Shown here piece by piece: positions 3,204 to 36,981 of a stretch of 64,000 nucleotides of DNA. The translations under genes and the position numbers were made by a program. The notes below the pieces were generated by a model. The model did no database searches, was not told where the DNA came from, and was given only the letters and a program-made list of their open reading frames with translations. Within the stretch, counting starts at the first letter, position 1. The number at the start of each line of letters is the position of its first letter. The DNA comes from Candidatus Daviesbacteria bacterium (GTDB lineage: Bacteria; Patescibacteriota; Microgenomatia; Daviesbacterales; UBA10151), in the NCBI GenBank assembly GCA_016432425.1, contig CP066688.1:726647-790646 (forward strand), written 5' to 3'.

Positions 3204-3288
3204 GCCCCGATGCTGGAATTGGTAGACAGGCTAGTTTCAGGAACTAGTGCCCGAAAGGGCGTGGGAGTTCGAGTCTCCCTTGGGGCAC
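3204..3288 (+). tRNA. tRNA-Leu (anticodon CAG), type II
   Basis: Hand fold: acceptor GCCCCGA/TTGGGGC; anticodon stem CTAGT/ACTAG with loop TTCAGGA; long variable arm TGCCCGAAAGGGCGT; T-arm GGGAG-TTCGAGT-CTCCC. No encoded CCA. Confidence 0.8.
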
Positions 3289-3292
3289 TTAA

Positions 3293-3377
3293 GCCGAGGT
3301 GGCGGAATTGGTATACGCGTACGCTTGAGGTGCGTATCCCGCAAGGGGTGCAGGTTCAAGTCCTGTCCTCGGCACCA
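3293..3377 (+). tRNA. tRNA-Leu (anticodon GAG), type II, CCA encoded
   Basis: Acceptor GCCGAGG/CCTCGGC; anticodon stem TACGC/GCGTA with loop TTGAGGT; long variable arm; T-arm CAGG-TTCAAGT-CCTG; ends ACCA. Confidence 0.8.
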
Positions 3378-3388
3378 AAATAATTTAT

Positions 3389-3461
3389 GGACGGTTAGCT
3401 CAGTTGGTAGAGCGCTTCATTTACACTGAAGATGTCGGGGGTTCAAGTCCCTCACCGTCCA
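3389..3461 (+). tRNA. tRNA-Val (anticodon TAC)
   Basis: Acceptor GGACGGT/ACCGTCC; D-arm GCTC-AGTTGGT-AGAGC; anticodon stem CTTCA/TGAAG with loop TTTACAC; T-arm GGGGG-TTCAAGT-CCCTC. Confidence 0.85.
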
Positions 3462-3462
3462 C

Positions 3463-3975
3463 TTACTTTCCTATTCCCAAAACTTGGGATCCTAGCCAGG
3501 GTTGGTAATTGACCAGATGTAAAGAAAATTCTTGGTATATCTTAAAAAGAAAAAGTAAAATTAAAACTGCTGTAGATAATTTTCTGGACCAAAGTAATTT
3601 TTCTCCCCAGAATTTTTGATAAATTAAATAAAACAAAAAGAAGAATTCAAATAAATTGGGAAAGAAAAATAATAATTGCTTTGCTTGAGTAATCTCAAAA
3701 AGAATAACACCAACTATTCTATAAAAAAATAAACTGCTGGCAATTTTTTTAACTAATTTGTCTCTCCAGGTTAAAGCTACTATAAATTCCAAAGTCAAAT
3801 AATGAAGATCTAATACTTTATCTAGGTTTTGGTAAAGTATTAATTTCCCTGGGTCAAAAGCCTGTAGGATATTAAAATCAATATAATCCAGGAAAATACT
3901 TAAGAGCCCGCCAATGAGGGGCCATCTTAGAATTAGCAGTGGCAAAGTGATTCTTAAAAGAATTACTAATATCAA
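3463..3975 (-). CDS. hypothetical polytopic membrane protein
   Basis: 170-aa ORF, strongly hydrophobic with several predicted TM segments. No recognisable motif. Confidence 0.4.
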   Translation of the reverse strand: MILVILLRITLPLLILRWPLIGGLLSIFLDYIDFNILQAFDPGKLILYQNLDKVLDLHYLTLEFIVALTWRDKLVKKIASSLFFYRIVGVILFEITQAKQLLFFFPNLFEFFFLFYLIYQKFWGEKLLWSRKLSTAVLILLFLFKIYQEFSLHLVNYQPWLGSQVLGIGK

Positions 3976-4061
3976 GTTATTAATATATTTTTATCCAAGC
4001 TTTAGAGAATCAGATAAACTTAAAGTAAGAAAAAGATAGGAAAATTTGTTATGATTTTAAT

Positions 4062-4268
4062 ATGGTAGATCCGGGAAAGATTTTTGCCCTGCTGGGAATT
4101 CTTTTTTTAATGATTTCTTTATTATGGAATGTAATTGCCCCTAATTTGCCCAAAATTCCCGGGGATATTTATATAAATAGAGGTGGAATTAAGATTTATA
4201 TCCCCTGGTTATCTTCCTTAATCCTTTCCGCCATCTTAACTTTACTCTTCAATTTTTTTAGAAAATAG
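4062..4268 (+). CDS. DUF2905-family small membrane protein
   Basis: 68 aa. LPKIPGDIYINRGGIKIYIPWLSSLILSAILTLLFNFFRK matches the DUF2905 pattern (PGDI..R.G.....P), two TM helices. Confidence 0.7.
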   Translation: MVDPGKIFALLGILFLMISLLWNVIAPNLPKIPGDIYINRGGIKIYIPWLSSLILSAILTLLFNFFRK

Positions 4269-4433
4269 GGTAAAATCTACAGTGATTTGCCGGAATTGCC
4301 AACGTGGTCAAGGCGGGCGCTTGAAGAGCGTTTTATCTCAGTCCGATTCTGGGTTCCGGCACCGAAAGTTTCTGTGGGAATAACAACCTCCGCCAAAGGC
4401 GGAGAACGTTGTTCCCTGGAAATCGGCATTTCT

Positions 4434-4508
4434 GCGGGAATAGCTCAGCGGTAGAGCGTCTCATTGCCAATGAGAAGGTCACGGGTTCAAATCCCGCTTC
4501 CCGCTCCA
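4434..4508 (+). tRNA. tRNA-Gly (anticodon GCC), CCA encoded
   Basis: Acceptor GCGGGAA/TTCCCGC; D-arm GCTC-AGCGGTA-GAGC; anticodon stem TCTCA/TGAGA with loop TTGCCAA; T-arm ACGGG-TTCAAAT-CCCGC; ends TCCA. Confidence 0.85.
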
Positions 4509-6664: not shown

Positions 6665-7585
6665 CTACCTTTTTTCAAATTCATATATAAAGCATCCAGG
6701 TTTTATGTATATTCCGTTTTCTTTTTGATAGGTGTTAAAATCTTGTTTCAACTCATCAATTATCTCTTCAACATCATTTGATTTGTTAAAATATGTTTCC
6801 ATATGGAAATTCATGAATGTTTCTAGTGCCTCATTCATGGATTCATATCGTATCGGGTCGCCTACTAAATGAGTTGTAGACATTTTTCCGATTCCCTCCC
6901 GTAAACATATATTGGAAACCTCGTCGATTAATAATTTGGATGGAGATTGGATATTGATATCTGAAAATATTGGGAAAACCTTTTTCCATTGTTTAAAAAG
7001 AATAGTTTGCTCTTCACTCTGACTATCAAAGTGAATAATATATAATTTTCCATTTGATTCTAAATTATTTTTTATAAACCTGAGGATGTTATTTTTTACA
7101 TATTCAGATTTTGATGGGTCATGAATCAAATGCTGATGTACTGAATGTGAGAAGCTCCACAAGCTATACACAAAATCATATTTATTTTTGGCGCTAGAGA
7201 AATAGTTAATGGTATCACTGCGGATAAAAGAAATACCTCTTTGATTCCGATATTTTTTTTGGGAATAATCGATCATTTGAGGACTAAGATCAACCATGTC
7301 CAGGGATGTATATCTAGGTATGTGTTCCAGAAAAATATCAGTGGCTCTACCTGAACCAAAGCCCAGTTCAAGCGCTCGTATGATCGGAAGAGGTCTTATT
7401 TTACTGTCCAAATAATTTGAAAAAAGTTTAAGGTCAGTGACGGAGTTAAATACATACTCCTTAAGTATGCTATTATAGTAATCTGGAGGTATATATTCTG
7501 AAATTTTGTCTGCATGTAGCTTGAGCCAAGGATATTTCTGTTGCAAATAGCTTAATTGCATATCCCACTTATGATAAATCATCAT
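6665..7585 (-). CDS. class I SAM-dependent methyltransferase
   Basis: Motif I LELGFGSGRATD (E/DxGxGxG) followed by acidic motif II (DMVDLS). 306 aa with a ~90-aa N-terminal extension. Confidence 0.65.
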   Translation of the reverse strand: MMIYHKWDMQLSYLQQKYPWLKLHADKISEYIPPDYYNSILKEYVFNSVTDLKLFSNYLDSKIRPLPIIRALELGFGSGRATDIFLEHIPRYTSLDMVDLSPQMIDYSQKKYRNQRGISFIRSDTINYFSSAKNKYDFVYSLWSFSHSVHQHLIHDPSKSEYVKNNILRFIKNNLESNGKLYIIHFDSQSEEQTILFKQWKKVFPIFSDINIQSPSKLLIDEVSNICLREGIGKMSTTHLVGDPIRYESMNEALETFMNFHMETYFNKSNDVEEIIDELKQDFNTYQKENGIYIKPGCFIYEFEKR

Positions 7586-11825: not shown

Positions 11826-13139
11826 TTAAAAACCATTAATTAAAACCACCGGCTCCGGGTGTTTATTGGAAGGGTCGCTGTGGCCACTACCTAAAATTTC
11901 TGCTAAAGCCTTCAGGCTGTCCCTGACCTGGGTCCAAGTAGCTCCCGGGTTTGATTTTAAATACAGGGCTGCAGTTCCAGCTACATGAGGTGAGGCCATG
12001 CTGGTTCCGCTGATGGATTTATATCTACCTCCTACCCAGGTGGAATTAATGCTCACTCCCGGCGCTGCCAAATCTACCACAGATCCAAAGTTAGAAAAGC
12101 TGGCAAAAGTATCATCTGCCCCGTAAGTGGTGGCAGAGCCCAAACCTCCAGCCAAACCATCTGAATCACTCAAAGCAGAAACTGTGATGAGAGCATCATC
12201 ATAAGCAGCAGGCACCATCAAACCGGCATCCTGGTTGCTGTTGCCTGCAGCTGCCACATAGGTTATCCCTGCCGAGGCAGACCTGCAGATAGCCTGATGT
12301 AGAGCATCCTGATTTGAGCTGCCGCAGTTATTATCACTTTGTCCGCCTCCTCCCAGGCTCATATTGGCAACTTTAATATTAAACTTAGAGGCATTTTGGG
12401 TCACCCAGTCAATGCCGCAAATTACCGAAGACCAGGTTCCACTGCCACGGGAGTCTAAAACTTTAACTGCCATCAGTTTGGCCTGAGGGGCTACCCCTAC
12501 CACTCCCAGATTATTTTGCAGGGCAGCAATTGTCCCGGCCACATGGGTGCCGTGGCCGTTATCGTCATCACCTTTTCTTAATGGTCTGATGCAGTTCACA
12601 TTGGCCAAAATATTGCCTGCCAAATCCGGATGGTCCAGGTCAATACCGGTATCAATGACTGCCACCCCGATACCATCACCATAATTATTAAGCTGGATGC
12701 CGTTAATTCTTCTGATGCCGGTAGGAGTGGATTGGACAGCAGTTGTGCGGTGACTTAAGGCAAAAACTTTTTTATCCTGGGAGATAAATTTTACCCTGGA
12801 ATCCTGTCTGATCTGCTCAATTTTTTGATCAGTAATATTGGCTGAGAAACCTTTAAGGGGCTTTGAGTATTTATGTTTAATGCTGATTTGGTGCTGGCCT
12901 TGAAGCTGATCAGCCACCTCAGCAGGATTTTGTACCTCATCTTTGAACACCACAATATACTCGCCCGGGATATTCACAGAAATATTTCCTTCTTGAATTT
13001 TTGATTCTCCCAAGTTCCCCTCAGCGCTGTTGTTTGAGGTATTAAGGTTAAGATTAATATTGGTCTCAGTAGCTAAAATTGGCGCAGCAAGGAAAAGATA
13101 GAGGAAGGAAGCAAAAAGCAGCAGAGCAGTCTTAAACAT
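11826..13139 (-). CDS. secreted subtilisin-like serine protease (peptidase S8) with I9 propeptide
   Basis: Catalytic triad motifs VAVIDTGID (Asp), HGTHVAGTIAA (His), GTSMASPHVAG (Ser). N-terminal signal peptide plus inhibitor-I9-like prodomain. Confidence 0.9.
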   Translation of the reverse strand: MFKTALLLFASFLYLFLAAPILATETNINLNLNTSNNSAEGNLGESKIQEGNISVNIPGEYIVVFKDEVQNPAEVADQLQGQHQISIKHKYSKPLKGFSANITDQKIEQIRQDSRVKFISQDKKVFALSHRTTAVQSTPTGIRRINGIQLNNYGDGIGVAVIDTGIDLDHPDLAGNILANVNCIRPLRKGDDDNGHGTHVAGTIAALQNNLGVVGVAPQAKLMAVKVLDSRGSGTWSSVICGIDWVTQNASKFNIKVANMSLGGGGQSDNNCGSSNQDALHQAICRSASAGITYVAAAGNSNQDAGLMVPAAYDDALITVSALSDSDGLAGGLGSATTYGADDTFASFSNFGSVVDLAAPGVSINSTWVGGRYKSISGTSMASPHVAGTAALYLKSNPGATWTQVRDSLKALAEILGSGHSDPSNKHPEPVVLINGF

Positions 13140-13225: not shown

Positions 13226-13831
13226 ATGTTTATTTCCAAGTTAAACTTAAAAGAGCCGGGAGCAACTTACCTGCCGATTTTTAATGCAAATGCATTATTT
13301 AAAAAAATCTTAATTGCGGCACTAATTATTGCAATTTTGGGGGGAGCAGGTTATCTGGTTAGTAGATTTTACGACACAGGATCTCAAAACGCTTCTCCAT
13401 CTTCATCCTCAGTCAAATCCCAGAGGATTTCTTTGTCCGAGAGTTTCGAAATCCCAACCGGGCTGGAGGGGAAAGATGCAGGAGCCCCTCTTAAGGTTAG
13501 TTTTCAGCGGGCCCAACTTGCCAACCGCATCTTCATCTCCGGTAAACCGGTGATGGCCAAAGATGGCACCAAATTCTTAATGCTAAACTTCCTTTTGGAA
13601 AACAGTAACAGCAAGGCTTTAAATGTTAAAACTACTGATTTGATCAGACTGATTGACCAAAACGGCAAGAAGTTTGCCCCCAGCTATTTTAATAAAGGAA
13701 AACCTTTGGCTGCTGACTCAACCAAAAAAGATACCTTAGGGTTTTTGGTACCTGACAATATTAAGGAGTTTAAGATTCAATATGGCACTATTGACGGCCC
13801 CAAAAAACTACTGGAGCTAAAATTTAACTGA
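13226..13831 (+). CDS. hypothetical membrane-anchored secreted protein
   Basis: N-terminal TM (ILIAALIIAILGGAGYLV) then a Ser-rich linker and a beta-rich domain. No recognisable motif. Confidence 0.4.
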   Translation: MFISKLNLKEPGATYLPIFNANALFKKILIAALIIAILGGAGYLVSRFYDTGSQNASPSSSSVKSQRISLSESFEIPTGLEGKDAGAPLKVSFQRAQLANRIFISGKPVMAKDGTKFLMLNFLLENSNSKALNVKTTDLIRLIDQNGKKFAPSYFNKGKPLAADSTKKDTLGFLVPDNIKEFKIQYGTIDGPKKLLELKFN

Positions 13832-13842
13832 CACTTCAATTT

Positions 13843-14001
13843 CACTTAAGTGCTATAGAAAATTATTACCGAACTCTTACTACAACATTATTACTTTTTA
13901 AACAGCAGACTTTAATATAGTAAAAGCTATGAGTTATACGGTTATCTGTTCGTCATAGCTTAAGTTGCCAGCGGAGGCTGTCCTATTTAATCAAAGTAGG
14001 G
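13843..14001 (+). promoter_or_regulatory. structured leader/regulatory region upstream of the repeat-protein operon
   Basis: Perfect 10-bp palindrome CACTTAAGTG (13843-13852). Hairpin AAGCTATGA...TCATAGCTT (13914-13952). Long imperfect hairpin GCGGAGGCTGTCCTA...TAGGGCAACCTCCGC (13961-14001). Strong SD GGAGGTGA 8 nt before the ATG at 14112. Confidence 0.35.
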
Positions 14002-14111
14002 CAACCTCCGCTTCAAAATCACCAAACTACAGGTGATGGCGGACTTGGGTCTTAAAACGCTTCCCTCTTTAAAAGACTTGAGATTTTTAAGTGGAAGGAG
14101 GTGATTTATAG

Positions 14112-15752
14112 ATGTTAAAAAAATGGCAAAAGATTCCAGCAGCTATAGCTATGGGAGCAGCCACTCTGGCATTTGCTTTAACCCCAGTTTTAGCTGTTGA
14201 TGTAACTAGCACTAATGAGATGACTGGCTCAGGATCTACCAATACTACCACGACCGATGTCACCAATACCCAGACTGTGACTAATGATAATACCTCAGTA
14301 GTCACCAATACCTTTACTATCACTGCCACAACCGGCGGTAATAGCGCCTCGGACAATACCGGGGATGGGGAGGTTGGCAGCGGTGATGCAGCAAGTAGTG
14401 TCACTTCTGATACAACCAGTAATGTAAACACTACTGATTTGTCAACAGCAGGTACTATGTCGGTAGATTCCGCCAATTCAGTGACCGGTTCTTCCTCCAC
14501 TAATACAACTGACGTAACAGTGACCAACGATGCAACGGTGGTTAACACCAATGATCTGGAAGTCACTAATACGCTGGATTTGTTATCAGACACCGGAGGA
14601 AATACTGCAGATAGCAACACTGGTAATGGCACTGCCTCCAGCGGCGACGCATCTGCAAATGGGGATGTTTCTACAACCGGCAATATCAATGATACCACCG
14701 TATCAATGGCAGCTGATCCGATTGATGTCTCAAACGACACCACCGGATTTGACTCCTTAAATACTGTCTTGGTTGATGTCAGCAATACTGTGACTGTCAT
14801 TAATGATAATGCACCAATAGTGCCTACTACGATCACCAATGATATGAGTTTAACCTCACTCAGCGGTGGCAACAGCGCTGATGGCAATACCGGAGACGGT
14901 AGCGTTGATGGCGGTGGTGCGGATACAACAGTCAGCCTGGCAACAGATGTTAATTCCAACATGGTAGATATTGGGGCAGGAGGAGATTTGGATATTAATA
15001 TGTCCAATGACACTACCGGCTCAAGCTCAACCAACAGCATGGATGCATCTGTGACCAATGATCTGACTGTGGTTAACACCAATGATGCAGATATCCTAAA
15101 TGATATCAGTATGCTCTCTGATACGGGCGGAAATTCCGCATCAGGTAATACCGAGGATGGGTCTGTAGACAGTGGTAATGCCGGGTTAATGGCAGATGTG
15201 GCAACCACAGCCAATTCCAATGACGTGGATACCGGCGGAGCCTTTGGCGATATAGACGCCATGCTATCCAATAGCGTAACGGGCTCTTCATCAGACAACA
15301 CCATCGATTTGAGCGTTGACAACACCAATACTGTCTTAAATGACAATGTGGTGGATGTTGACAATTTGCTGGATATTATCGGATTGACCGGTGATAACAG
15401 CGCCGATGCCAACACCGGCGACGGTTCTGCCTCCAGCGGTGATGTGGATGTGGAAGCTGAGGTCACAACAGATGTCAACTTCAATACCACAGATGATATG
15501 GCAGCTGGGGACGTGGACGTGGATGAAGAAAATACCATGACCGGTTCCGGCTCAACCAATGACATCACGGATACGATTACCAATACCTTAACTCTGGTAA
15601 ATGACAATGATTCCGACGTCTTAAATGACGCCACCGGAACATTGGACACCGGCGGAAATAGCGCCGATGGCAACACTGGGGACGGTGAGGTGGCAACCGG
15701 GGATGTTGATTTGGAGTTAGACTTCACTACTAATGAAAACATGAACATGTAG
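14112..15752 (+). CDS. secreted Thr/Asn/Ser/Asp-rich tandem-repeat protein (about six ~88-aa repeats), no anchor
   Basis: Sec signal peptide MLKKWQKIPAAIAMGAATLAFALTPVLA preceded by SD GGAGGTGA. Recurrent core TGGNSA(S/D)(D/G)NTG(D/N)G within a longer repeat N..TGS.STN...D..VTN..TVVNTND. The antisense 559-aa ORF is a compositional shadow. Confidence 0.75.
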   Translation: MLKKWQKIPAAIAMGAATLAFALTPVLAVDVTSTNEMTGSGSTNTTTTDVTNTQTVTNDNTSVVTNTFTITATTGGNSASDNTGDGEVGSGDAASSVTSDTTSNVNTTDLSTAGTMSVDSANSVTGSSSTNTTDVTVTNDATVVNTNDLEVTNTLDLLSDTGGNTADSNTGNGTASSGDASANGDVSTTGNINDTTVSMAADPIDVSNDTTGFDSLNTVLVDVSNTVTVINDNAPIVPTTITNDMSLTSLSGGNSADGNTGDGSVDGGGADTTVSLATDVNSNMVDIGAGGDLDINMSNDTTGSSSTNSMDASVTNDLTVVNTNDADILNDISMLSDTGGNSASGNTEDGSVDSGNAGLMADVATTANSNDVDTGGAFGDIDAMLSNSVTGSSSDNTIDLSVDNTNTVLNDNVVDVDNLLDIIGLTGDNSADANTGDGSASSGDVDVEAEVTTDVNFNTTDDMAAGDVDVDEENTMTGSGSTNDITDTITNTLTLVNDNDSDVLNDATGTLDTGGNSADGNTGDGEVATGDVDLELDFTTNENMNM

Positions 15753-15762
15753 TGAAGATTTC

Positions 15763-15794
15763 CCAAGGGGGTTTGTGGAAGCCAAACCCCCAGG
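15763..15794 (+). terminator. intra-operon hairpin (attenuator/partial terminator) between repeat genes 1 and 2
   Basis: CCAAGGGGGTTTG-tggaagc-CAAACCCCCAGG, a 9-12 bp GC-rich stem 10 nt after the stop of gene 1. The downstream tract is only moderately U-rich. Confidence 0.4.
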
Positions 15795-15836
15795 GAATAA
15801 ATATTCTTCGAGCGAAGCGGGAAGTTACTTAAAATT

Positions 15837-18290
15837 ATGAATAAATTAGCTGTAAACTTTACTGCCTTAATATTAATAATTAGTCTAGGTTTAAATGGGC
15901 CTGTCGGGTTAGTATTGGCTCAAGAAGCTACTCCTAGTGCGGAAAGTTCCACTACCGAAAATTCCACCACCGGCGCTAATTCCACCAACACTGCCACTGC
16001 AACTGTAGACCAAACTTCTACCACCACTAACACCAATGATGCCATTGCCGTTAACACTACTGATGCACTTTCTGCCTCCGGGGATAATGCAGCTTTAGAT
16101 AACACGGGTGATGCTTCAATCACCACCAACACTGCTGCAACCTCTGCTACTACCTCAACTGAAACTAACCAAACTATTTGGGAACCAATGCCCTGGACTA
16201 CTTGGACAGGTGAGGGTGACTGGCAGACCAGAGCAGAAAACTCCACCACCGGTGCTGACTCTACCAACACCGCCACAACTAGTGTTTCACAAACAGATAC
16301 CCTAACCAACACCAACACTGCTGATGTGACAAACAGCGCTACTACTACTTCTTTAACAGGCGCAAATGTTGCCTCGGATAATACCGGCTCAGCCACTATC
16401 AGCACCGGGAATGCCTCCACCACCACCGCTACTCAAACTACTGCTAATACTAACATTGTTTCCTGGACAGGTGAGGGTGACTGGAGCAATCTGTGGAACG
16501 GTGAGGCAGTTAATTTTCTGACCGGTGCTAACTCCACCAATACTTCAAGTGTAGATTTTACTAAAGTGCTGGATGTTTTAAATGAAAACGGGGTGAATGT
16601 GGATAATTTGATTGCCTCCTTTGCCACCAGTGGAGATAATATTGCCTCGGATAATACCGGAAATGCCACTATTACTACCGGTAGCGCCTTAGTCCTTTCC
16701 ACTTTATTTAATCTGGTTAATACTAATATTTTTGGTACTGATATTATGGAGATTCTATACCAGGATATCTTCGGCACCTTTTCCGGAAATATTGACCTAT
16801 CTTTCGGCAACTTATTTTCTTTGCCCAACTTAATCTCCCAGCCTTTAACCCTAAATTCCAGCAACGATACCACTGGTTTTAACTCGGATAATACAGCCAC
16901 TACTGTAGGCAGTTTCACTGTGGATATCACTAATGATAATAGCGGTGTATTAAATAATGCCCTAGATTTATTTGCCATAACCGGCTCCAACACTGCCTCG
17001 GATAATACCGGAAACGTGCTAGTGGAGACAGGAAATGCGGAGGTTATGGTTAACTTAGTCAATTTCCTAAATACTAATATCTCCACCAATGAGCTTTACC
17101 TGGGGGTAATTAATGTCTTTGGGGACTGGACCGGGAATTTGATACTGCCTGAATATAATGGGGTAACCAGTAGTTCCCCGCTACCGCTACTTTCATCAAC
17201 AAAAAATATCCAAACAGGTGCTACTTCAGATAATACTGCTACTATGACCACAGATAACATTTTGACTGTAGATAATACTAACAATGCTACTGTTGATAAC
17301 GTATTCAACTTATTTGCTGAAACAGGAGGTAATAGCGCCTCTGATAATACTTTATCAGCCAGTGTTACCACCGGTTTGTCCCAAGTGGAAGCCAACCAGG
17401 CTACCTTTGCCAATACTAACGTGGTAAGTAATGCTCCCTGGTGGTTAGTTATAATTAACAATTTAGGCACTTGGGTACCGGTACTACTGCCTCCTTTAAA
17501 CATCGGGACACAGCTGGTTTTGGATTTAGATGATTTGGGAATGAATATTCCCAGCAGCAGTGAAACTTTAGATTTAACTGCCGCTAATAATCTTACCGGT
17601 AGTTTATCCAGCAATGAGGCAAGTGTCACTTTGAATTCTGAGACTAATATTACCAATACTAATGTGGGAACAATTATTAATGATGTTAGCGCTTTAGCTT
17701 CAACAGGAGGCAATGAGGCTAGTAGAAATACCGGATCGGCCACAATTGCCAGTGGTAATGCTTCTATCTTGGTTAATACTTTAAACTTTCTCAATACTAA
17801 TGTAATAGCACCCTCGATACTAATATCAATAGTTAATGTTTTCGGCAGCTGGATGGGAGATGTTTTAAGCTTTGGAACACAAGCACCTCTTCCGGCCGTT
17901 TCTGCCCCCGACCAGCCTATTGCCCAGGCAGAAAACTCGGGAAATATCACCAATGCTCCAGCCAGTCCTTCCAACCCCACCACATCTTCCGAGACAAATT
18001 CATCCCAGAGTTCACCAAGTGTAAATTTTAGTTCTGCCGCACCCCTTTCATCCGTGTCTAATAACCAAAGTACCACCCCTCCCAACTTTAATACCCAAAG
18101 CAATATTCAAAACCAAGAAGGCGAAGTTTTGGCATTTTATGAGGAAAAAGGTGGTGGGGACGGAGGATTCCCCTCTCAAGTAAATGAGGAAACACCGGAT
18201 ACAAAAGGAACTCTTATCCTGATGCTAATTGCCCTGACAGCTGTTTTGTTCATCTTAACAAGAGTTAGCAGAATAATTTCACGAAAATGA
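15837..18290 (+). CDS. secreted Thr/Asn/Ser-rich tandem-repeat protein with C-terminal TM anchor
   Basis: Signal peptide MNKLAVNFTALILIISLGLNGPVGLVLA. Repeats SGDNAALDNTGDASITTNTA, TGANVASDNTGSATISTGNAS, SGDNIASDNTGNATITTGSA, TGSNTASDNTGNVLVETGNAE, TGGNEASRNTGSATIASGNAS. C-terminal GTLILMLIALTAVLFILTRVSRIISRK. TGA stop overlaps the next ATG (ATGA). Confidence 0.75.
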   Translation: MNKLAVNFTALILIISLGLNGPVGLVLAQEATPSAESSTTENSTTGANSTNTATATVDQTSTTTNTNDAIAVNTTDALSASGDNAALDNTGDASITTNTAATSATTSTETNQTIWEPMPWTTWTGEGDWQTRAENSTTGADSTNTATTSVSQTDTLTNTNTADVTNSATTTSLTGANVASDNTGSATISTGNASTTTATQTTANTNIVSWTGEGDWSNLWNGEAVNFLTGANSTNTSSVDFTKVLDVLNENGVNVDNLIASFATSGDNIASDNTGNATITTGSALVLSTLFNLVNTNIFGTDIMEILYQDIFGTFSGNIDLSFGNLFSLPNLISQPLTLNSSNDTTGFNSDNTATTVGSFTVDITNDNSGVLNNALDLFAITGSNTASDNTGNVLVETGNAEVMVNLVNFLNTNISTNELYLGVINVFGDWTGNLILPEYNGVTSSSPLPLLSSTKNIQTGATSDNTATMTTDNILTVDNTNNATVDNVFNLFAETGGNSASDNTLSASVTTGLSQVEANQATFANTNVVSNAPWWLVIINNLGTWVPVLLPPLNIGTQLVLDLDDLGMNIPSSSETLDLTAANNLTGSLSSNEASVTLNSETNITNTNVGTIINDVSALASTGGNEASRNTGSATIASGNASILVNTLNFLNTNVIAPSILISIVNVFGSWMGDVLSFGTQAPLPAVSAPDQPIAQAENSGNITNAPASPSNPTTSSETNSSQSSPSVNFSSAAPLSSVSNNQSTTPPNFNTQSNIQNQEGEVLAFYEEKGGGDGGFPSQVNEETPDTKGTLILMLIALTAVLFILTRVSRIISRK

Positions 18291-19201
18291 GAAATAAGTT
18301 AATTAGTTTAATTATCTTGATCGGATTGACATTTGCTATACCCGGATCCGCGATGGCAGATACCGAAGTGACATCGTCTAATTCCTCCACCGGTGCTGAC
18401 TCTACCAATACCACCAGCTCAACTGTCACCAATGATAACTCTGTTGTCAATAATAATACGTCAGTAGTTACCAATACCATTGATATTACGGGCTCAACAG
18501 GAGCCAACAGCGCCTCAGCTAACACCGGTGACGGTACAGTTGGTAGCGGCTCAATAGACGGCAATGTGGAGGTAAGCAGTACCGATAATCAAAATACTAC
18601 CCTTTTGACAGATAGCGGCAGCATCAATATTACCCAACAAAATACAGAGACCGGCAGTAATTCAACAAATTCCTCCAGCATTAATGTCAGCAATATCAAC
18701 ACCGTTACCAACACTAATGATTCTGTCAAAGAAAATAACTTAATTGTCGATCTTTCCACCGGAGGCAATATAGCAGATGGAAATAGCGGTGGAAGCAGTA
18801 TCACCAGCGGAGATATCACATTTAATGTCGGAGTCACTAATGTGGATAATATCAATGAAACAAATATTGGCCCACCGGCTCCGGGAGGAGTTTCTCAGCC
18901 ACCTGAGGGCCAGGGAGGACAACAGCCGCCACCCCAAGTAGGTGGCGGAGGAGCAGCCATAGCACAAGCCCTGGGAGGGCCAACAGAGGTTACTTCTGCC
19001 CAACCTGCAGGTGAAATATTGGGAATTTCCTCCTTGCCAATTACCGGCCCCACAATAAATCTTTGGATTTTAGCGCTGCTGGCTGCCTCTGTGGCATTGT
19101 TAGGTTGGTTTATGATTAACCGCTCCTACGCTTGGGAAAAAGCCTTAATTAGAAAAAGACTCTCCTTTTCAATTAAAACCCCGCCGAGAAGGCGGGGTTA
19201 A
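18287..19201 (+). CDS. secreted repeat protein with LPXTG (LPITG) sortase cell-wall anchor
   Basis: Signal peptide with AMA-DT cleavage region. Repeats TGANSASANTGDGTVGSGS and TGGNIADGNSGGSSITSGD. Pro/Gly-rich stalk. C-terminal LPITG + hydrophobic segment + RKRL tail is a canonical sortase sorting signal. Confidence 0.75.
   Translation: MRNKLISLIILIGLTFAIPGSAMADTEVTSSNSSTGADSTNTTSSTVTNDNSVVNNNTSVVTNTIDITGSTGANSASANTGDGTVGSGSIDGNVEVSSTDNQNTTLLTDSGSINITQQNTETGSNSTNSSSINVSNINTVTNTNDSVKENNLIVDLSTGGNIADGNSGGSSITSGDITFNVGVTNVDNINETNIGPPAPGGVSQPPEGQGGQQPPPQVGGGGAAIAQALGGPTEVTSAQPAGEILGISSLPITGPTINLWILALLAASVALLGWFMINRSYAWEKALIRKRLSFSIKTPPRRRG
19179..19197. terminator. GC-rich hairpin overlapping the operon stop codon (possible bidirectional terminator)
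   Basis: CCCCGCC-gagaa-GGCGGGG at the end of 18287-19201. It sits between convergent genes (DUF378 on the minus strand). No clean T-run on the plus side. Confidence 0.35.
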
Positions 19202-19499: not shown

Positions 19500-22400
19500 T
19501 TAACGAAGAGAACGTGGAGTTGGCACTGAAGGTCTAACCGCTCCGATAATCTTTTCTAGACTTAAAAGATGTTGTTGTGGCGTATCGAATACCCGCAGTA
19601 TTCCCCATAAACCATCATTTAAATGATTGAAAAAGACGTTACATTTGAATAAAAAGTCCCCCGCAACACTCCCCGCACCTCCACCTCCCAAAAGCGTCAA
19701 ATTAAAAGCCCTGCCGGTATTAATACCTCCTTGAGTGTTTAGTATCGTTGATTGCGGATCATTTTGCTCATGCATCCAACTGTGTCCATGAAGATTAAAA
19801 GCATGTCCCCGAGGTTTATCTTGCGGATTAAAAACCCTCAAGACAACCGGATCACCTTTGTAAGCTTGAAATACCGGCGTGGCCGGGTCATTGTGTCCCA
19901 CTTCCGGATTGGAACTGAAAATCCATGCCTCTTCGCCCTCATGGGCAAGCCGGTTGGCAAAACGCTCTGCCCGGTAATTAATACCTTTATGCCCTTGGTC
20001 TTCCGGATCTGTCTTTCTTGGGGTATTGGAATCCTCTATATCCTCATGGCCTTCTTTAAGATCAGGAATTGGCAGATTGTTTTTACTAAAGAGGTTTAGA
20101 CCATCCTGAAAGGCAATTACAAACTCCCGAAAAGCTTTATATTTTCTCTCCGCTTGATCAAAATACTTAATCACTGCCGACTCCCCGCTTTCTGTTGGAG
20201 TACCTTTTTGAGGATCTAGATAAGTGGCAAATTTATGTTCAACTATTAAGCCCCCAAAAAGTCCATGGTGGCGATGCCCGCGGATGTCCCCAAAATCCGC
20301 CAAATTTATAATCCCCAAATTTTTAGTATCAACGTACCATTTGTAGCTAATGGTTTCCCCTGGTGCTATTGTCTGATCAAAATTATATCCTACAGTTGCC
20401 CCATCTGAACCAACCACGTCATATTTTAAAAGATGGGGGTGTAGGGAAACTCTTTTGCTGGTATTCCACCGAGGATTACTATCCTCTTTCTTTTCTTCTT
20501 CCTCCACACCACAGGAGTCAGCGCCAAACGCCTGATTGCAAACCGTCCCATCAGCAAGTTTAGGAAAAATATCTTCCGGCGGATGGGTATCACCCACATG
20601 GGGTTTAATCCCTTCTGTCGGCAGTAAATTTTTCAGTGTGATATTAATACAATCTCCTTCATTAGCCCGGATAAATAAAGGTTTATCAGAAGGAATTGGT
20701 TTATTGGCTTTGTCCAATAAAGTATACATCAGGCCATTGGGATCATGGTCTCCCTCGCCGTTATAGACAATTTTTTTAGAGATAGCTCCTAATTTGTAGT
20801 TTCGTTGTGGCGCTCCCGGCAAACAAGGATTTCCCGGACTCTTAGCTTTTTTCAAAGGTTCTCCTGGTTTTAAAGCTGGCCACTGCGAAGTGGCAACCGG
20901 AGGCTTATTTTGGGGCAATGGTTTTAGATCAGGAGTTTGTGAGGCAAAAACCCTCATAATTCCCCACATTCCGTTCCATAAATCATCCATCGGTAAAGAT
21001 CCATACAAATAATCGCCAGAAGATCCGGCCCCACCCAACAAGATTTGAGTTGCTCCGTGTATCATCTCTCCAATTTCCCTGGCTCTTTCTGCACCCGATA
21101 ACCTTTTAACCAATTTTGTCCCCTGAAGCTCAAAATTAAAAAACTCCGCAATGTTCATTGATTGGGCATCATACAAATTAGACTGGGGATCATCGGGCTC
21201 ATGTAGCCAACGATGGCCATGAATATTAAAATTATGTTGTTCTTCGTGAGCGCCTTGCACGAGACGGACCACAATCGGATCCCCCCGGTAAGCTTTAAAA
21301 ATCGGCGTGGCCGGATCTCCAAAAACAGCGGAACTAAAAATGTAGGCAGGATCATTTTTATTGGCAATTGAAGAAGGCAGATGCGGGTTGATTCTGATTT
21401 GGAAAGGTTCGTTGCGGTAGTTAACAGTCATGGTCCCCTGGTCTGCGCCATAATCTCCAGCTCCATCCATACCTCTGGGGGAAATCGGCACTATATCTTT
21501 CTCTGCAGGCCCTTGGTTTCCGGGTAAATCCGGAGCAGGCCTAAAGCCAGGCACAAAATCAGCGTAAAAAATACTAAATTCCCTAAAACTGGTACCCTTA
21601 GGAACAATAATATTAGCCGTCGTTCCCACCCCATCGCTGGAAGAACCATCTGGTTTTTCCCAGGTAGAACCATCTGGCTCCACATTCCAGGCAGCATAAA
21701 GACCATGCTGCTGGCCGGTGTTGGGAAATTGATGATCGTGGAAAAATACTGTCCGAAGATTCATATCCACAAAAAGCCTGCTGCCAATTGTTTGACCGGC
21801 CAGCGCTGACTGATCATAATTCCAACCGACCGAAGTTCCGTCAGAACTTAATAAATCGTACATAAAAAGATGCGTATGAACACTTAATTCGCTCATTGGT
21901 CCTTGATGATGAAAAATCTGGTCTTCAAACAGATCTTTTTCCCCATCTCCATGGATATCTACCGGCACAGGTTGGCCTACATTTTCAGGATTATTTAAAT
22001 CATCCTCATGGGTAAGGTTGGTAAAACGGATATTGGCGCATTCACCAACCTGGTTACGGATGACATAAGGTTCAGGCTTTTCTTTGCCGGATAAAACATC
22101 TTGAAGATGTGATTTTTCCACGTATAGTTTTCCGTCGGGATCTTGCCACCCACCTGTCCCGTTACCGCTTTCATTCATCACTAACGCTTTAAATGTGGGA
22201 TGGTCCGGATCAGCATCAATCGCCACCGGGTGATAGGTTCTTTCTTTAGCACCTGTTGGGCAAGGGTCCTGATAAAAAACGCCAGGTGTGGTATCACTCC
22301 CGGGTCGGCCGTTATTGCCGGCCATATTGGTTTTTTCCAACTCGGTTGGTTTTCTGACGGTATCTCCAGGGCGCCTGAGCGGTTTGTTATTTGCATCAGT

Positions 22401-24017
22401 TTGATAAGGGTCTTCAACCACAAAATTTGGCGGACGGTAAGCTTTTTGTAGAAACTGGCCTTTGATAAACAAAGGGAAACCCGGTTGTACCTCGGTGGGA
22501 GCAACTGTCAGTCCTTTTCTGTCTGGTAGTTCCTGCAGGGTTTCGATTGGTGTTCCGTCAGGATAAACTTGGTTATATTCTGTATTGCGAAGTTTGTCAA
22601 AGGTCCGCAAGGTCCCCCAAAAACCTTGGGCAAAATGAGGGTAAAGATGGCAGTGAAAAATAGCATCACCTGGTGATCCGGGAGCGGCGCCAGCCCCCTT
22701 CTCATAGCGTAACTGAAAAGTTTGTCCCGGCCCAGTCAGTTGAACATCTAATCGAGTGGAGTTGGGATCATCCGGTTCATGAAACCAGCGATGTTGATGT
22801 TGATGAAAAGTATGATGTTCTTTTTCTCCGGGATGAATAATACGAAAGCGCAGCGGATCACCCACATAAGCCTTGGGTATTAGATTGTCACTATCAACAA
22901 CAATTTTCCCACCCTCTGTTTTAGAAACCAGCTTGCCATGGTCTCCAAACGGCCAGGATTGCAGATGTACTTCCTCACTAAAACATTTAGCTGATTGATC
23001 AGGAGCGATCTCCTTTAAGTCGGTATCAAAACCGTCACAGAAATTATCTGTTGGTAAAATAACTCTCCCGTTTGGCAAAGTCACAATTTTACCGGCTCGA
23101 TGATCTAAAATAGCCCGCAATCTATTACGGAGCGGTTCAGAACGGTAATTAAAACCGAAAGTGGAGTCTTCTAAATTAGTGGTAGGAAAAGTCGGATGCG
23201 ATCCTGAAGCATCAATAATTTCTTCATTTTCATCTAAAAATACCAAAGCGTAATCTCTAAAGTCATTGGGATTTTCTTTATCTCCTCCGGGTACTTCAAT
23301 ATCTGCAAAAACCGGCGTCTCGACACCGATTAGCTTCCCTGCAATATCTTTTAAAATTTCAGCTCCGGTAACAGGATTTCTCCAAACAGAACCTTTGGGT
23401 TCAACAATAAATCCCCCGTAAAGACCAATCTTCATGGTGTTTTTTTCACTGGCAGGATTAGTATTGGCCATATCATTAATGGGGAACTGGCCTTCGTTTT
23501 CGGCATACCAGACGTAGACTCTTTCCTCTCCTGTGGCAGCAGTGGTATCATTGTTGAGGCCGACGCGGCTGCCGTCAGAGGTCTTTGGGTCATAAGATAA
23601 ACCTGCTATTGTCATACCTACCCGCTTATCCGGAACCTCATTTTTAAAACGGACTACCACACAATCCCCCGCATTGGCCCGAAGCACCAAAGGAGAAGCC
23701 AAATTTTTATTGCCTAAAATGCTGTCTTTATTGGGGAAAGCCTGAGGGTTATTTAAAGCGTAGATGTTAGCTTTTGTAAAACGGTCACCCCAACCATTTA
23801 GAGGTAAGTCTGATACTTCAAAAGCGGCTACATCATAATAAATAGTCCGCTCTGATTTTTTATCCTGACAGATTTTAGTATTTCCAGTCTCTGGATGATC
23901 GGATGAGTAAAGTGCCAAAACATGATGTTGTTTGAAAAGAAGAAAAAATACAGTTATTAAAAAGCCCACAAAAAGTAGGCATATTCTAAGCTTAAAATAA
24001 TTAATATTTAAATGCAT
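19500..24017 (-). CDS. giant (1505 aa) membrane-anchored multicopper-oxidase-like protein, three fused laccase-like modules
   Basis: N-terminal TM (ICLLFVGFLITVFFLLF). Module A has degenerate L1/L2 (MTIAGL; IGLYGGFIVEP without His) but intact L3 HTFHQHQHRWFHEPDDP and T1/T3 motif FHCHLYPHFAQGFWG. Module B has HTHLFMYD, FFHDHQF...HGLY and FNIHGHRWLHEPDDP; its L4 is lost (YGSLPMDDLWNGMWG). Module C has LHPHLLKYD, GHRHHGLFGGLIV and FNLHGHSWMHEQNDP; its L4 is degenerate (FKCNVFFNHLNDGLWG). Confidence 0.75.
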   Translation of the reverse strand: MHLNINYFKLRICLLFVGFLITVFFLLFKQHHVLALYSSDHPETGNTKICQDKKSERTIYYDVAAFEVSDLPLNGWGDRFTKANIYALNNPQAFPNKDSILGNKNLASPLVLRANAGDCVVVRFKNEVPDKRVGMTIAGLSYDPKTSDGSRVGLNNDTTAATGEERVYVWYAENEGQFPINDMANTNPASEKNTMKIGLYGGFIVEPKGSVWRNPVTGAEILKDIAGKLIGVETPVFADIEVPGGDKENPNDFRDYALVFLDENEEIIDASGSHPTFPTTNLEDSTFGFNYRSEPLRNRLRAILDHRAGKIVTLPNGRVILPTDNFCDGFDTDLKEIAPDQSAKCFSEEVHLQSWPFGDHGKLVSKTEGGKIVVDSDNLIPKAYVGDPLRFRIIHPGEKEHHTFHQHQHRWFHEPDDPNSTRLDVQLTGPGQTFQLRYEKGAGAAPGSPGDAIFHCHLYPHFAQGFWGTLRTFDKLRNTEYNQVYPDGTPIETLQELPDRKGLTVAPTEVQPGFPLFIKGQFLQKAYRPPNFVVEDPYQTDANNKPLRRPGDTVRKPTELEKTNMAGNNGRPGSDTTPGVFYQDPCPTGAKERTYHPVAIDADPDHPTFKALVMNESGNGTGGWQDPDGKLYVEKSHLQDVLSGKEKPEPYVIRNQVGECANIRFTNLTHEDDLNNPENVGQPVPVDIHGDGEKDLFEDQIFHHQGPMSELSVHTHLFMYDLLSSDGTSVGWNYDQSALAGQTIGSRLFVDMNLRTVFFHDHQFPNTGQQHGLYAAWNVEPDGSTWEKPDGSSSDGVGTTANIIVPKGTSFREFSIFYADFVPGFRPAPDLPGNQGPAEKDIVPISPRGMDGAGDYGADQGTMTVNYRNEPFQIRINPHLPSSIANKNDPAYIFSSAVFGDPATPIFKAYRGDPIVVRLVQGAHEEQHNFNIHGHRWLHEPDDPQSNLYDAQSMNIAEFFNFELQGTKLVKRLSGAERAREIGEMIHGATQILLGGAGSSGDYLYGSLPMDDLWNGMWGIMRVFASQTPDLKPLPQNKPPVATSQWPALKPGEPLKKAKSPGNPCLPGAPQRNYKLGAISKKIVYNGEGDHDPNGLMYTLLDKANKPIPSDKPLFIRANEGDCINITLKNLLPTEGIKPHVGDTHPPEDIFPKLADGTVCNQAFGADSCGVEEEEKKEDSNPRWNTSKRVSLHPHLLKYDVVGSDGATVGYNFDQTIAPGETISYKWYVDTKNLGIINLADFGDIRGHRHHGLFGGLIVEHKFATYLDPQKGTPTESGESAVIKYFDQAERKYKAFREFVIAFQDGLNLFSKNNLPIPDLKEGHEDIEDSNTPRKTDPEDQGHKGINYRAERFANRLAHEGEEAWIFSSNPEVGHNDPATPVFQAYKGDPVVLRVFNPQDKPRGHAFNLHGHSWMHEQNDPQSTILNTQGGINTGRAFNLTLLGGGGAGSVAGDFLFKCNVFFNHLNDGLWGILRVFDTPQQHLLSLEKIIGAVRPSVPTPRSLR

Positions 24018-24797: not shown

Positions 24798-24841
24798 GAT
24801 ATTATATTCGAGAGTAAGTTCATAATCTGTCCAAAACACAT

Positions 24842-24912
24842 TGCGGGATCGTCTAACGGTAGGACAACAGACTTTGGATCTGTTTATCATGGTTCGAATC
24901 CATGTCCCGCAG
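24842..24912 (+). tRNA. tRNA-Gln (anticodon TTG)
   Basis: Acceptor TGCGGGA/TCCCGCA; D-arm GTC-TAACGGTAG-GAC; anticodon stem ACAGA/TCTGT with loop CTTTGGA; T-arm CATGG-TTCGAAT-CCATG; discriminator G. No CCA. Confidence 0.8.
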
Positions 24913-24999
24913 CCCATTCGACTCTGGTTCGACTACTTCGACTGTGCTCAGTACGAGTTCGCTCACCATCGCTCAGGGCTATAGCCGAATTATATAATT
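24910..24999 (+). repeat. 90-bp perfect direct repeat, copy A, starting in the last 3 nt of tRNA-Gln
   Basis: CAGCCCATTCGACTCTGGTTCGACTACTTCGACTGTGCTCAGTACGAGTTCGCTCACCATCGCTCAGGGCTATAGCCGAATTATATAATT is identical to 26110-26199, offset exactly 1200 bp. Confidence 0.9.
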
Positions 25000-30508: not shown

Positions 30509-30590
30509 GGGCTAGTGGCGGAATTGGTATACGCGCGCGCCTTAAGAGCGTGTGGGGAAACCCTTGTGGGTTCGAGTCCCACCTAGCCTA
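30509..30590 (+). tRNA. tRNA-Leu (anticodon TAA), type II
   Basis: Acceptor GGGCTAG/CTAGCCT (G1-U72 wobble); anticodon stem CGCGC/GCGTG with loop CTTAAGA; long variable arm TGGGGAAACCCTT; T-arm GTGGG-TTCGAGT-CCCAC. Confidence 0.75.
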
Positions 30591-30596
30591 CATTCT

Positions 30597-30616
30597 CGGG
30601 GACTAGTTCATCGGTA
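30597..30616 (+). repeat. 20-nt duplicate of the tRNA-Pro 5' end (CGGGGACTAGTTCATCGGTA)
   Basis: Identical to 30706-30725, the first 20 nt of the intact tRNA-Pro 109 bp downstream. Confidence 0.85.
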
Positions 30617-30684
30617 AGCAGAGCTTGCCATCTGGTGATGGTAAGCAGAGCTTGCCATCTGGTGATGGTAAGCAGAGCTTGCCA
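30613..30684 (+). repeat. tandem 27-nt repeat GGTAAGCAGAGCTTGCCATCTGGTGAT, 2.7 copies
   Basis: Copies at 30613-30639, 30640-30666 and partial 30667-30684. Contains the 12-mer AAGCAGAGCTTG and the hairpin CCATC-tggt-GATGG. Flanked by inverted repeats GACTAGTTCATCGG / CCAATGAACTGTC. Confidence 0.85.
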
Positions 30685-30705
30685 ATGAACTGTCGGATTA
30701 TATTT

Positions 30706-30777
30706 CGGGGACTAGTTCATCGGTAGAACGCTCGGTTTGGGACCGAGAAGTACAGGGTTCAATTCCCTGGTCCCCGA
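30706..30777 (+). tRNA. tRNA-Pro (anticodon TGG)
   Basis: Acceptor CGGGGAC/GTCCCCG; D-arm GTTC-ATCGGTA-GAAC; anticodon stem CTCGG/CCGAG with loop TTTGGGA; T-arm CAGGG-TTCAATT-CCCTG; discriminator A. Confidence 0.85.
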
Positions 30778-30796
30778 CTCTAATAATTACTCTTCA

Positions 30797-35759: not shown

Positions 35760-35865
35760 TTTAACCGGCGGCTGGTGCCAAGTTACAATTTGGGCTTTGC
35801 AGAGCTCTGCGGCCCCCCTCCCGCGCAGAGCCAACCCTCCGTCCGCTTTGCGGACTCCCTTTCGG
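35760..35865 (-). other. GC-rich structured tail following the tRNA-like element (candidate ncRNA)
   Basis: About 65% GC versus about 38% background. Hairpins GTCCGC-aaa-GCGGAC and CTCTGCG-cgggaggggggc-CGCAGAG on the minus strand. Confidence 0.35.
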
Positions 35866-35936
35866 AGCGGGTGAGGAGAATCGGACTCCCGTATCCAGTT
35901 TGGAAAACTGGTGTTCTACCATTGAACTACACCCGC
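35866..35936 (-). tRNA. tRNA-Gly (anticodon TCC)-like gene with noncanonical T-loop
   Basis: Minus-strand acceptor GCGGGTG/CACCCGC; D-arm GTTC-AATGGTA-GAAC; anticodon stem CCAGT/ACTGG with loop TTTCCAA; T-arm GGGAG-TCCGATT-CTCCT (position 55 is C, not U). Confidence 0.5.
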
Positions 35937-35982
35937 ACATCAAAATGAATTAAGAATTATTTTACCAGTCTTTGGGCTAGAT

Positions 35983-36291
35983 TTAAAGCGCTTGGAGGTC
36001 GCGGTCGAGTTGAGTTATATCCGAATTATCACTGGTAGTATCAGCAGAATTTAGTTCATTATTTAAGCTATTCAAACTGGATGGAGTTGAACCGGTTGTG
36101 GCAGGAGTATTGGTGGGTACTCCAAGACTACCTTGATTTCTTATATACAGATAAACTCCCGTTGCCAGCACTACCACTACTAAAATTATCATAATAACCC
36201 ATGTAATTGAATTACCCTTTTTATGACTGTCTGGAGTATCAGTTGGTATTTGTATATTGGGCATCGGTTGACTGCTAGTGTTATTGTCCAT
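35983..36291 (-). CDS. hypothetical membrane-anchored Ser/Thr-rich protein
   Basis: TM segment WVIMIILVVVVLATGVYLYI followed by an S/T/N-rich tail. Confidence 0.35.
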   Translation of the reverse strand: MDNNTSSQPMPNIQIPTDTPDSHKKGNSITWVIMIILVVVVLATGVYLYIRNQGSLGVPTNTPATTGSTPSSLNSLNNELNSADTTSDNSDITQLDRDLQAL

Positions 36292-36913
36292 TATTTTCTC
36301 CCAAAGTGCTGGCCGCAGTTTGAATGGCCTTGGCTACTGCCTGTTTAGTCTCAGTTAAAGTAGTTTTGGTAGCCTGTAAATCCTGGCGTAGGCTGTCAAA
36401 AGCAGCTTTGGCATTGGTCTTAACTTTGCCTTCAGTAGTGACATTAACATTATAATCTTTGGCAGATTGGTTTTCTACGGCAATTTTGGCCTCCGCAATC
36501 TTGGCTTTGGCATCAGCAATAGCAGCTTGGGCAGCGGTCGTATCACCGCTGGCATTTCCTACCCTGGTTTCCACCTTAGCCAAAATATCTGACATGGTAT
36601 TGATAAACCTTAGGAAGGCATTGGTTCTGTTTTCGTTAATTTTATTTAAGTTTTCATTAAATTTTTCTACCCGCTGGGCTCTTTTTTGGTCCTTGAATTT
36701 GGCCAGCCTGGATTTTAGCGCTGCTGTCCGGGAGGCAATATTTTCTTTTCTCTGGTCTAATCTTTCCTGGAGGGTAGCTTTCCTAGTTTCAAATCTTTCT
36801 TTAAGAGTTTCTTTTTTGGGAGTGGAGCTGGAGGTAGAAGTTTGAGCTAAAACAGTAGGGACTATAGTAAGAAGTAAAACTGCAGCGGACAAGGCTAACT
36901 TTAAATTTACCAT
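36281..36913 (-). CDS. hypothetical secreted coiled-coil protein
   Basis: Signal peptide MVNLKLALSAAVLLLTIVPTVLA, then a K/E/A-rich helical region. Its antisense ORF 36459-36845 is a shadow. Confidence 0.4.
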   Translation of the reverse strand: MVNLKLALSAAVLLLTIVPTVLAQTSTSSSTPKKETLKERFETRKATLQERLDQRKENIASRTAALKSRLAKFKDQKRAQRVEKFNENLNKINENRTNAFLRFINTMSDILAKVETRVGNASGDTTAAQAAIADAKAKIAEAKIAVENQSAKDYNVNVTTEGKVKTNAKAAFDSLRQDLQATKTTLTETKQAVAKAIQTAASTLGENNGQ

Positions 36914-36981
36914 TATAAATAGATTAACAAGCTCTTTCTAGTTTGTCAAATTGACCTTAAAATTGGTACAATACTTAGGCT

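Follow-up and report, generated by a model that had tools for sequence, protein, structure and literature searches.

What do the three neighbouring genes at positions 14,112 to 19,201 of a 64,000-nucleotide (nt) stretch from Candidatus Daviesbacteria bacterium (contig CP066688.1, positions 726,647 to 790,646 of the forward strand; this whole stretch is called the window here) build on the surface of their cell? Bacteria of the Candidate Phyla Radiation (CPR, or Patescibacteria) make up a substantial part of bacterial diversity and live attached to other cells, yet hardly any of their surface structures is known. A preliminary description of the locus had read it as an operon of three secreted Thr/Asn/Ser-rich proteins made of one tandem repeat, the last of them anchored by a sortase. 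With a probability of roughly 0.55, we consider that the core of the gene cassette to which these genes belong builds a beta-solenoid surface assembly anchored in three tiers, characteristic of the Microgenomates group of the CPR, in which a free acidic subunit docks on anchored paralogues. If the free subunit indeed polymerises on its anchored paralogues, it would represent a new mode of assembling a surface fibre, in a cell that bears a wall and has no outer membrane.

The three co-oriented open reading frames (ORFs) are present on the forward strand as claimed. Gene 1 (14112..15752, +) encodes 546 amino acids (aa), made up of a signal peptide and six 87-aa repeats only; gene 2 (15837..18290, +) encodes 817 aa with a signal peptide, six repeats, a stalk, a C-terminal transmembrane (TM) segment and a basic tail; and gene 3 (18287..19201, +) encodes 304 aa with a signal peptide, two repeats, a Pro/Gly-rich linker, the pentapeptide LPITG, a TM segment and again a basic tail. 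Translated, all three open with a basic n-region that leads through a hydrophobic core to a cleavage site of small residues. The best Shine-Dalgarno sequence belongs to gene 1, as had been proposed: the strong GGAAGGAGGTGA (14093..14104, +) has been read 7 nt ahead of its ATG, the GGGAAG of gene 2 is weak, and gene 3 lacks such a sequence, its start being joined to the stop of gene 2 by the ATGA overlap that had been described (read at 18287-18290, +).

The common building block is a repeat of 87 aa, rich in Thr, Asn, Ser, Gly and Asp. A hidden Markov model (HMM) of the unit has matched at full length six times in gene 1, six times in gene 2 and twice in gene 3, and nowhere else in the window; when the 14 units are aligned along their full extent, columns of Asn, Gly, Thr and Ser prove invariant. 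The motif [ST]G.N.A..NTG recurs six times in gene 1 at a spacing of 87-90 aa, five to six times in gene 2 and once or twice in gene 3. Self-similarity of gene 1 reaches its maximum at an offset of 87 aa (z=10.7 against shuffles), and autocorrelation has revealed no shorter sub-period in this protein, including at the ~22 aa expected of a solenoid coil (z=1.3 at offset 22). Unit-to-unit identity is 38-53%, and the units are marginally nearer to the same-numbered units of orthologues than to each other; therefore, the array is old and has not been homogenised. The units of gene 2 carry a hydrophobic extension of 20-40 aa, which in units 3-6 holds a conserved N.FG.W.G..LP (NxFGxW) and is also found in gene-2-type proteins of other loci. 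Thus, the shared repeat of ~85-90 aa seen at the outset is real, and its layout has to be corrected to a single 87-aa unit that is extended in gene 2.

The statement that this repeat lies outside the known families has held. Searches of Pfam-A and NCBIfam with the proteins of genes 1-3 have given zero matches at E<=1, no Pfam family is common to 60 relatives of the repeat proteins, and neither the protein nor the repeat profile has matched PDB sequences beyond one chance hit (E=0.32). For DUF11, CARDB and Cna-type domains, which had been named beforehand as the test of this claim, there is no profile match to the repeat in the three proteins (at E<=1), and none is shared among the 60 relatives; PF01345 (DUF11) occurs in two distant homologues, confined to a separate C-terminal region. 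The 65 homologues returned by the first homology search are unnamed or "hypothetical" and come from Patescibacteria. Run against 1.84 billion cluster representatives, the repeat profile has matched 1,980 at E<=1e-3 and 1,116 at E<=1e-10, with named sources that are all "hypothetical proteins" of Patescibacteria; essentially all repeat-bearing clusters are of CPR/Patescibacteria origin. No description of the repeat family has been found in the CPR literature. The proteins and their cassette are an undescribed family inside a known kind, the sortase-associated surface proteins of Gram-positive type, and their unusual features are the three-tier anchoring, a hyper-acidic and uncapped free subunit, and RNA elements of their own.

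The three proteins differ most clearly in how they end. Mature gene 1 consists of repeats with no sequence outside them and no anchor; its net charge is -85, and it holds zero Lys, Arg, His, Cys or Tyr, the only basic residues of the precursor being three Lys that all lie inside the signal peptide. This acidity is a trait of gene-1-type proteins in general (13.8 D+E against 3.1 K+R per 100 aa, with ~7-8 D+E in the other paralogues). Gene 2 continues beyond its repeats into a low-complexity stalk of ~100 aa and ends in a TM helix (residues 790-816) followed by RVSRIISRK, which agrees with the TM end assigned to it before. Gene 3 starts with the Sec signal peptide MRNKLISLIILIGLTFAIPGSAMA/DTE, as read from the translation, and ends in LPITG (19034-19048, +), the 21-residue hydrophobic INLWILALLAASVALLGWFMI and a tail with RKRL...RRRG that at 27 aa exceeds the usual length. 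Its orthologues keep GLPITG with TM segment and basic tail. This LPITG is the sole credible LPXTG signal in the window, and neither gene 1 nor gene 2 has an LPXTG. These signals make gene 3 credible as the substrate of a sortase. A sortase family has been reported as near-ubiquitous in Microgenomates, with its substrates not named (Méheust et al., 2019; PMC6744442). The cassette supplies plausible substrates for it.

How regular this arrangement is can be seen in related loci, of which 98 have been collected by a degenerate two-motif DNA pattern over GTDB species genomes and analysed for ORFs, HMM matches and motifs. They come from Levy-, Woese-, Davies-, Gottesman-, Roizman- and Woykebacteria, Saccharibacteria and Berkelbacteria; many matching metagenome-assembled genomes are labelled "Gammaproteobacteria", and their small chromosomes and gene content look CPR-like. 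The loci hold 75 gene-1-type genes. A gene-2-type gene lies directly downstream in 38/43, with a C-terminal TM segment in 37 of these 38 proteins, and a third paralogue follows in 22/33, twelve times with a strict LPxTG (LPATG, LPVTG, LPMTG, LPSTG, LPTTG). After the third paralogue comes a sortase in 15/19, so that most relatives have a dedicated enzyme downstream, in line with the sortase signal that had been assigned to gene 3. This sortase scores above the generic TIGR01076 cutoff and far under all class cutoffs (class C 68.7 bits, cutoff 160; class D 51 bits, cutoff 165). Upstream, and co-oriented with the gene-1-type gene, a DUF4352-like membrane protein is encoded in 50 of the 58 loci with room for it. 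Its counterpart in the window (13226..13831, +; 201 aa) is the conserved first gene of the cassette and has a membrane anchor at the N-terminus, its Pfam DUF4352 match being weak (E=5.5e-4) and under the cutoff. The name "three-gene operon" has accordingly proved too narrow: the full cassette in relatives comprises the DUF4352-like gene, the free, the TM-anchored and the LPxTG paralogues, a sortase dedicated to it and, encoded on the other strand, a small paralogue. In the Levybacteria locus L002, for example, proteins of 459, 735 and 379 aa, the third with LPVTG and a TM segment, stand in the same order directly ahead of a Pfam Sortase gene, and an additional paralogue of 206 aa lies on the other strand. 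The window belongs with L014, L048 and P0001 to a six-repeat subfamily whose gene 3 is short and has two repeats; the adjoining sortase is likewise missing from the loci with a short third gene (L020, L021, L054, L072, L073, L076). The cassette ranks among the most regular envelope gene sets of the Microgenomates branch.

Conservation extends to the spacer between genes 1 and 2, where a GC-rich hairpin had been described as an attenuator. In the window, the GC-rich stem-loop (15760..15797, +) has a folding free energy (dG) of -23.3 against -10.3 for shuffles, and a strong stem-loop is found in this spacer in 48/49 related loci, with a mean dG of -24.3 against -8.7. In at least 44 loci, the loop is NNCACUUC (8 nt) on a stem of 14-25 bp that varies in sequence (e.g., L009:5551-5594(-) and L038:2475-2518(+)). 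A covariance model of this CACUUC-loop hairpin has given one match per locus, only at this junction, and 45 matches in 800 kb; the covariation of the stem in this subfamily amounts to 0.475, compared with 0.207 in shuffles (0/500 reach the observed value) and 0.12-0.20 in slid controls. The model has no match in the window, and the hairpins of the window and of L014 show another common loop type, GUGGAAGC and UGAGGAAGC. The hairpin of the preliminary description is hence confirmed, and its role as an attenuator is unproven. Since the stem has no U-tract behind it, in the window as elsewhere, while clear U-tract terminators are present in the same genomes, we infer that stabilisation of the 3' end, or processing of RNase III type at this site, fits better than a classical attenuator.

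Structure prediction with AlphaFold has given an all-beta model for gene 1, from an alignment of 34 sequences, with a predicted local distance difference test score (pLDDT) of 72.8. The model of gene 2 (26 sequences) scores 72.0 overall, with up to 85-97 inside each repeat and <50 in linkers and stalk, and has a C-terminal helix. As fold neighbours of the models we have noted SufB/SufD, RTX blocks, antifreeze solenoids, RsaA and the LPXTG adhesins SRRP and PfbA. According to these models, the 87-aa repeat most likely folds as a beta-solenoid rod.

On this basis, we propose that three paralogues exported by the Sec pathway would differ in how they are retained at the surface: free, in the membrane or on the wall. 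Gene 2 would be held in the membrane by its C-terminal helix behind a long disordered stalk, and for gene 3 a sortase would cleave at LPITG and attach the product to the wall by a covalent bond. As both would be held at the C-terminus behind disordered Pro/Ser/Gly-rich spacers, the N-terminal repeat, directly after the signal peptide, would offer an open solenoid edge. Gene 1 would be open and uncapped at both ends, and appears set for the highest expression by the best ribosome-binding site and the stable 3' stem-loop. The abundant gene 1 product could then dock on the free edge of its anchored paralogues and stack head-to-tail into a surface fibril or coat, possibly with divalent cations that neutralise its charge, and the resulting layer may serve attachment or protection. 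The structure of the genes, their repeat family, the signals for anchoring, the conservation of the cassette, its link to a sortase in relatives and the conserved RNA hairpins are thus demonstrated; the fold is predicted, and docking and stacking, stoichiometry and function are deduced.

Several observations weigh against this proposal. The interaction of the three proteins, the retention of gene 1 at the cell and the expression of the cassette are all presumed. The models reach a moderate confidence (pLDDT 72-73), a Foldseek search with them against the PDB has returned no significant match, and AlphaFold tends toward solenoids for repetitive sequences, which is why the solenoid fold is taken with caution. 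No sortase has been detected in the window, either by Pfam on ORFs >=150 aa or by the HMM of the cassette sortase on ORFs >=50 aa, and the anchoring of gene 3 thus needs a sortase encoded outside it. Finally, the four-repeat gene-1 proteins of most relatives have a C-terminal extension that is missing in the window protein, and the mode of docking possibly depends on the subfamily for that reason.

The gene layout had been likened to a surface fibre, a pilus or an S-layer, and these readings separate on the evidence above. A surface fibre or coat remains the favoured one. That the coat is a two-dimensional S-layer-like lattice, with gene 1 as its abundant, acidic and non-covalently held protein and genes 2 and 3 as membrane and wall anchors, seems unlikely to us, if worth serious attention: lateral contacts for a lattice are not obvious in a rod that consists of collinear repeats and nothing more, the Pfam and NCBIfam searches have brought up none of the known domains for S-layer anchoring (SLH, CWB2 and similar), and the S-layer candidates put forward for Patescibacteria in a preprint are proteins of 1,100-1,300 aa from other lineages. 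Somewhat more doubtful is that the three proteins work independently, genes 2 and 3 as monomeric beta-solenoid adhesins and gene 1 as a released soluble factor that binds, e.g., cations or a host. LPXTG-anchored monomeric beta-helix adhesins (Lactobacillus reuteri SRRP, 5nxk; Streptococcus pneumoniae PfbA, 3zpp) do stand among the fold neighbours, and the acidity of gene 1 would suit a soluble cation binder; however, the fixed order and co-orientation of paralogues with graded anchors across many genera, the uncapped ends of gene 1 and the conserved expression-tuning stem-loop are more typical of one structure. A pilus polymerised by a sortase in the Gram-positive manner, for which gene 1 would supply the major pilin and genes 2 and 3 the minor or basal ones, has very little left to recommend it and is the part of the original comparison that falls. 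The layout superficially resembles a pilus islet and the adjoining sortase of relatives scores best, below threshold, under class C, but LPXTG is missing from genes 1 and 2, mature gene 1 provides no lysine nucleophile, and a predicted solenoid takes the place of Cna, SpaA or Ig domains, which together rule such a pilus out.

Whether the forward-strand ORFs are genes at all can be asked as well, as the window's ORF list contains long stop-free antisense ORFs of 559, 335, 218 and 168 aa and the exact protein of gene 1, unlike those of genes 2 and 3, has no entry in a collection of 15 billion proteins. Gene 2 is QQG43317.1 (HYW45_03920) and gene 3 is QQG43318.1 (HYW45_03925), both hypothetical proteins of Ca. 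Daviesbacteria at NCBI, and gene 1, whose best matches in the homology search show <=43% identity, may have been left unannotated in the GenBank record. An annotation artefact in low-complexity DNA, or real antisense genes in place of these, is nonetheless next to inconceivable: signal peptides, Shine-Dalgarno and sorting signals all lie on the forward strand, ~2,000 diverged relatives keep the Gly and Asn columns in that reading, and a gene with exactly the product of gene 1 has been called on an independent Logan assembly. The antisense translation is without relatives. These ORFs had also been suspected of misleading automated annotation, a worry that has found no support, as the longest (559 aa) has zero matches in a public protein search.

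Among known systems, the nearest kinds to judge by analogy are the LPXTG-anchored beta-helix adhesins and, by assembly logic, curli. The beta-helix adhesins of Firmicutes (SRRP, 5nxk; PfbA, 3zpp/4mr0) have no sequence relationship to the cassette proteins, which differ from them by an 87-aa super-repeat, three or four paralogues of graded anchoring (free, TM, LPXTG) and a sortase of their own. Curli, with CsgA as major subunit and CsgB as cell-bound nucleator, and Fap are built in diderms from Q/N-rich strand-loop-strand repeats of 19-23 aa and exported through the outer membrane by CsgG/E/F, whereas the cassette has a repeat of 87 aa without a short period, Sec export, a monoderm-like cell and anchoring by sortase or TM segment; the templated polymerisation would be the shared principle. 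With sortase-assembled pili (SpaA/FimA) the cassette has in common several secreted paralogues, a dedicated sortase and one LPXTG subunit, but its candidate major subunit has neither LPXTG nor lysine, CnaA and CnaB domains are absent, and the sortase of relatives scores below the NCBIfam cutoff for class C. Pam pili are likewise a CPR-specific surface operon of Sec-exported "hypothetical" proteins, some with C-terminal TM segments, in Saccharimonadia and Microgenomatia; by their description they are set apart by Ig-like pilins, donor-strand exchange, PapD-like chaperones and the lack of a sortase (10.64898/2026.03.03.709456), and the cassette proteins, as predicted solenoids, form a different family. 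As for RTX beta-rolls and RsaA, the cassette proteins contain no GGxGxDxUx nonapeptide and no HemolysinCabind match, and they carry an N-terminal Sec signal, not a C-terminal signal for type I secretion.

A second RNA element precedes the gene-1-type genes. In relatives, their leader consists, in order, of a sigma-70-like promoter, the 19-nt box GCYGACCGCAAACGGAGGC, a hairpin, a U-run and ~100-180 nt up to the start codon, the 5' arm of the hairpin overlapping the box (e.g., L009:6985-7050(-), L031, L053). Of 56 matches to the box in related loci, 51 lie before gene-1-type genes and 4 before the small paralogue. In an independent scan of metagenome contigs (L102-L221), the exact box is followed by a repeat-family ORF in 84/97 testable matches and by a T-run in 112/121. 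The exceptions include an S8 protease with a DUF4352-like gene, TasA-like with SipW-like genes, divergent paralogues of ~170 aa, and sugar-nucleotide enzymes. The ~170-aa secreted proteins behind the box in L131, L168 and L197 consist of two diverged units (…TG.N.QGN…VSGNN…TGDA.A…V.NTHVGCG…) that stay below the unit-HMM threshold, and they probably belong to a small and remote branch of the repeat superfamily. Several relatives also have a small ORF of 72 aa with a weak DUF2292 match between the DUF4352-like gene and the gene-1-type leader (L002:7696-7914(+); L009, ~7110-7310(-)); it does not occur in the window, where the spacer measures only 280 nt.

The window itself has a leader hairpin, AGCGGAGG...CCTCCGCT (13970..14012, +), of marked stability (dG -28.4 against -12.9 for shuffles) and without a U-tract. 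Even with <=3 mismatches allowed, the window contains no canonical box, and a scan of 13832-14111, ahead of gene 1, has detected no sigma-70 promoter; the hairpin is probably a diverged form of the box and terminator leader of the relatives. Neither RNA element has an Rfam family, as searched at gathering thresholds in the window and 18 loci and in E-value mode for one leader. With its terminator, the box may act as an attenuator and mark out an envelope regulon. Together, the two conserved elements provide an entry to regulation in organisms for which hardly any cis-regulatory RNAs have been described. If all of these strands are drawn together, one may picture a new kind of monoderm fibre, in which a lysine-free, hyper-acidic and uncapped solenoid would stack end to end, non-covalently and by templating, on paralogous primers fixed by sortase and TM segment, following a curli-like principle and governed by two undescribed RNA elements: a box and terminator leader, perhaps attenuator- or riboswitch-like, of a Microgenomates envelope regulon that would include an S8 protease and TasA/SipW-type genes, and a processing or stabilising stem-loop. 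We regard this fuller picture as speculative and would not expect all of it to hold.

At its downstream end, the cassette of the window closes with the hairpin AACCCCGCC-GAGAA-GGCGGGGTT (19177..19199, +), which overlaps the final codons and the stop of gene 3 and likely marks the end of the operon; the genes after gene 3 lie on the opposite strand in the ORF list. The ORF directly downstream, at 19500-24017 (-), encodes 1,505 aa with a hydrophobic segment at the N-terminus and weak multicopper-oxidase matches only; no relatives of it have been seen beside the cassette at other loci. On the upstream side, 11826-13139 (-) encodes, divergently from the cassette, an S8 protease of subtilisin-like type that is secreted and has an I9 propeptide. 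Such a protease is also found near the cassette of L002 and, in the metagenome locus L115, under the leader box, where a DUF4352-like gene comes after it; its role may be the processing of the surface proteins. Also beside the L002 cassette, the segment L002:14228-17380(-) encodes a HemolysinCabind protein, a protein with a weak S26 signal-peptidase match, and weakly matching Peptidase_M73 (TasA/camelysin-type) and VWA proteins, a cluster that looks like a second surface-fibre system and may be co-regulated with the cassette (cf. L205).

Farther away in the window, at 55184-59764 (+), a protein of 1,526 aa combines SpaA-type prealbumin-fold, SdrD-B, fn3 and disaggregatase-repeat domains, a set typical of Gram-positive surface proteins and pilins, and no LPXTG has been found in it. 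Thirteen tRNA genes are spread over the 64 kb, several of them tightly clustered (3204-4508, 24841-24916, 30509-30778, 35864-39369). The GC content of the window ranges from 33 to 46% and has its maximum in the cassette region, at 14-24 kb.

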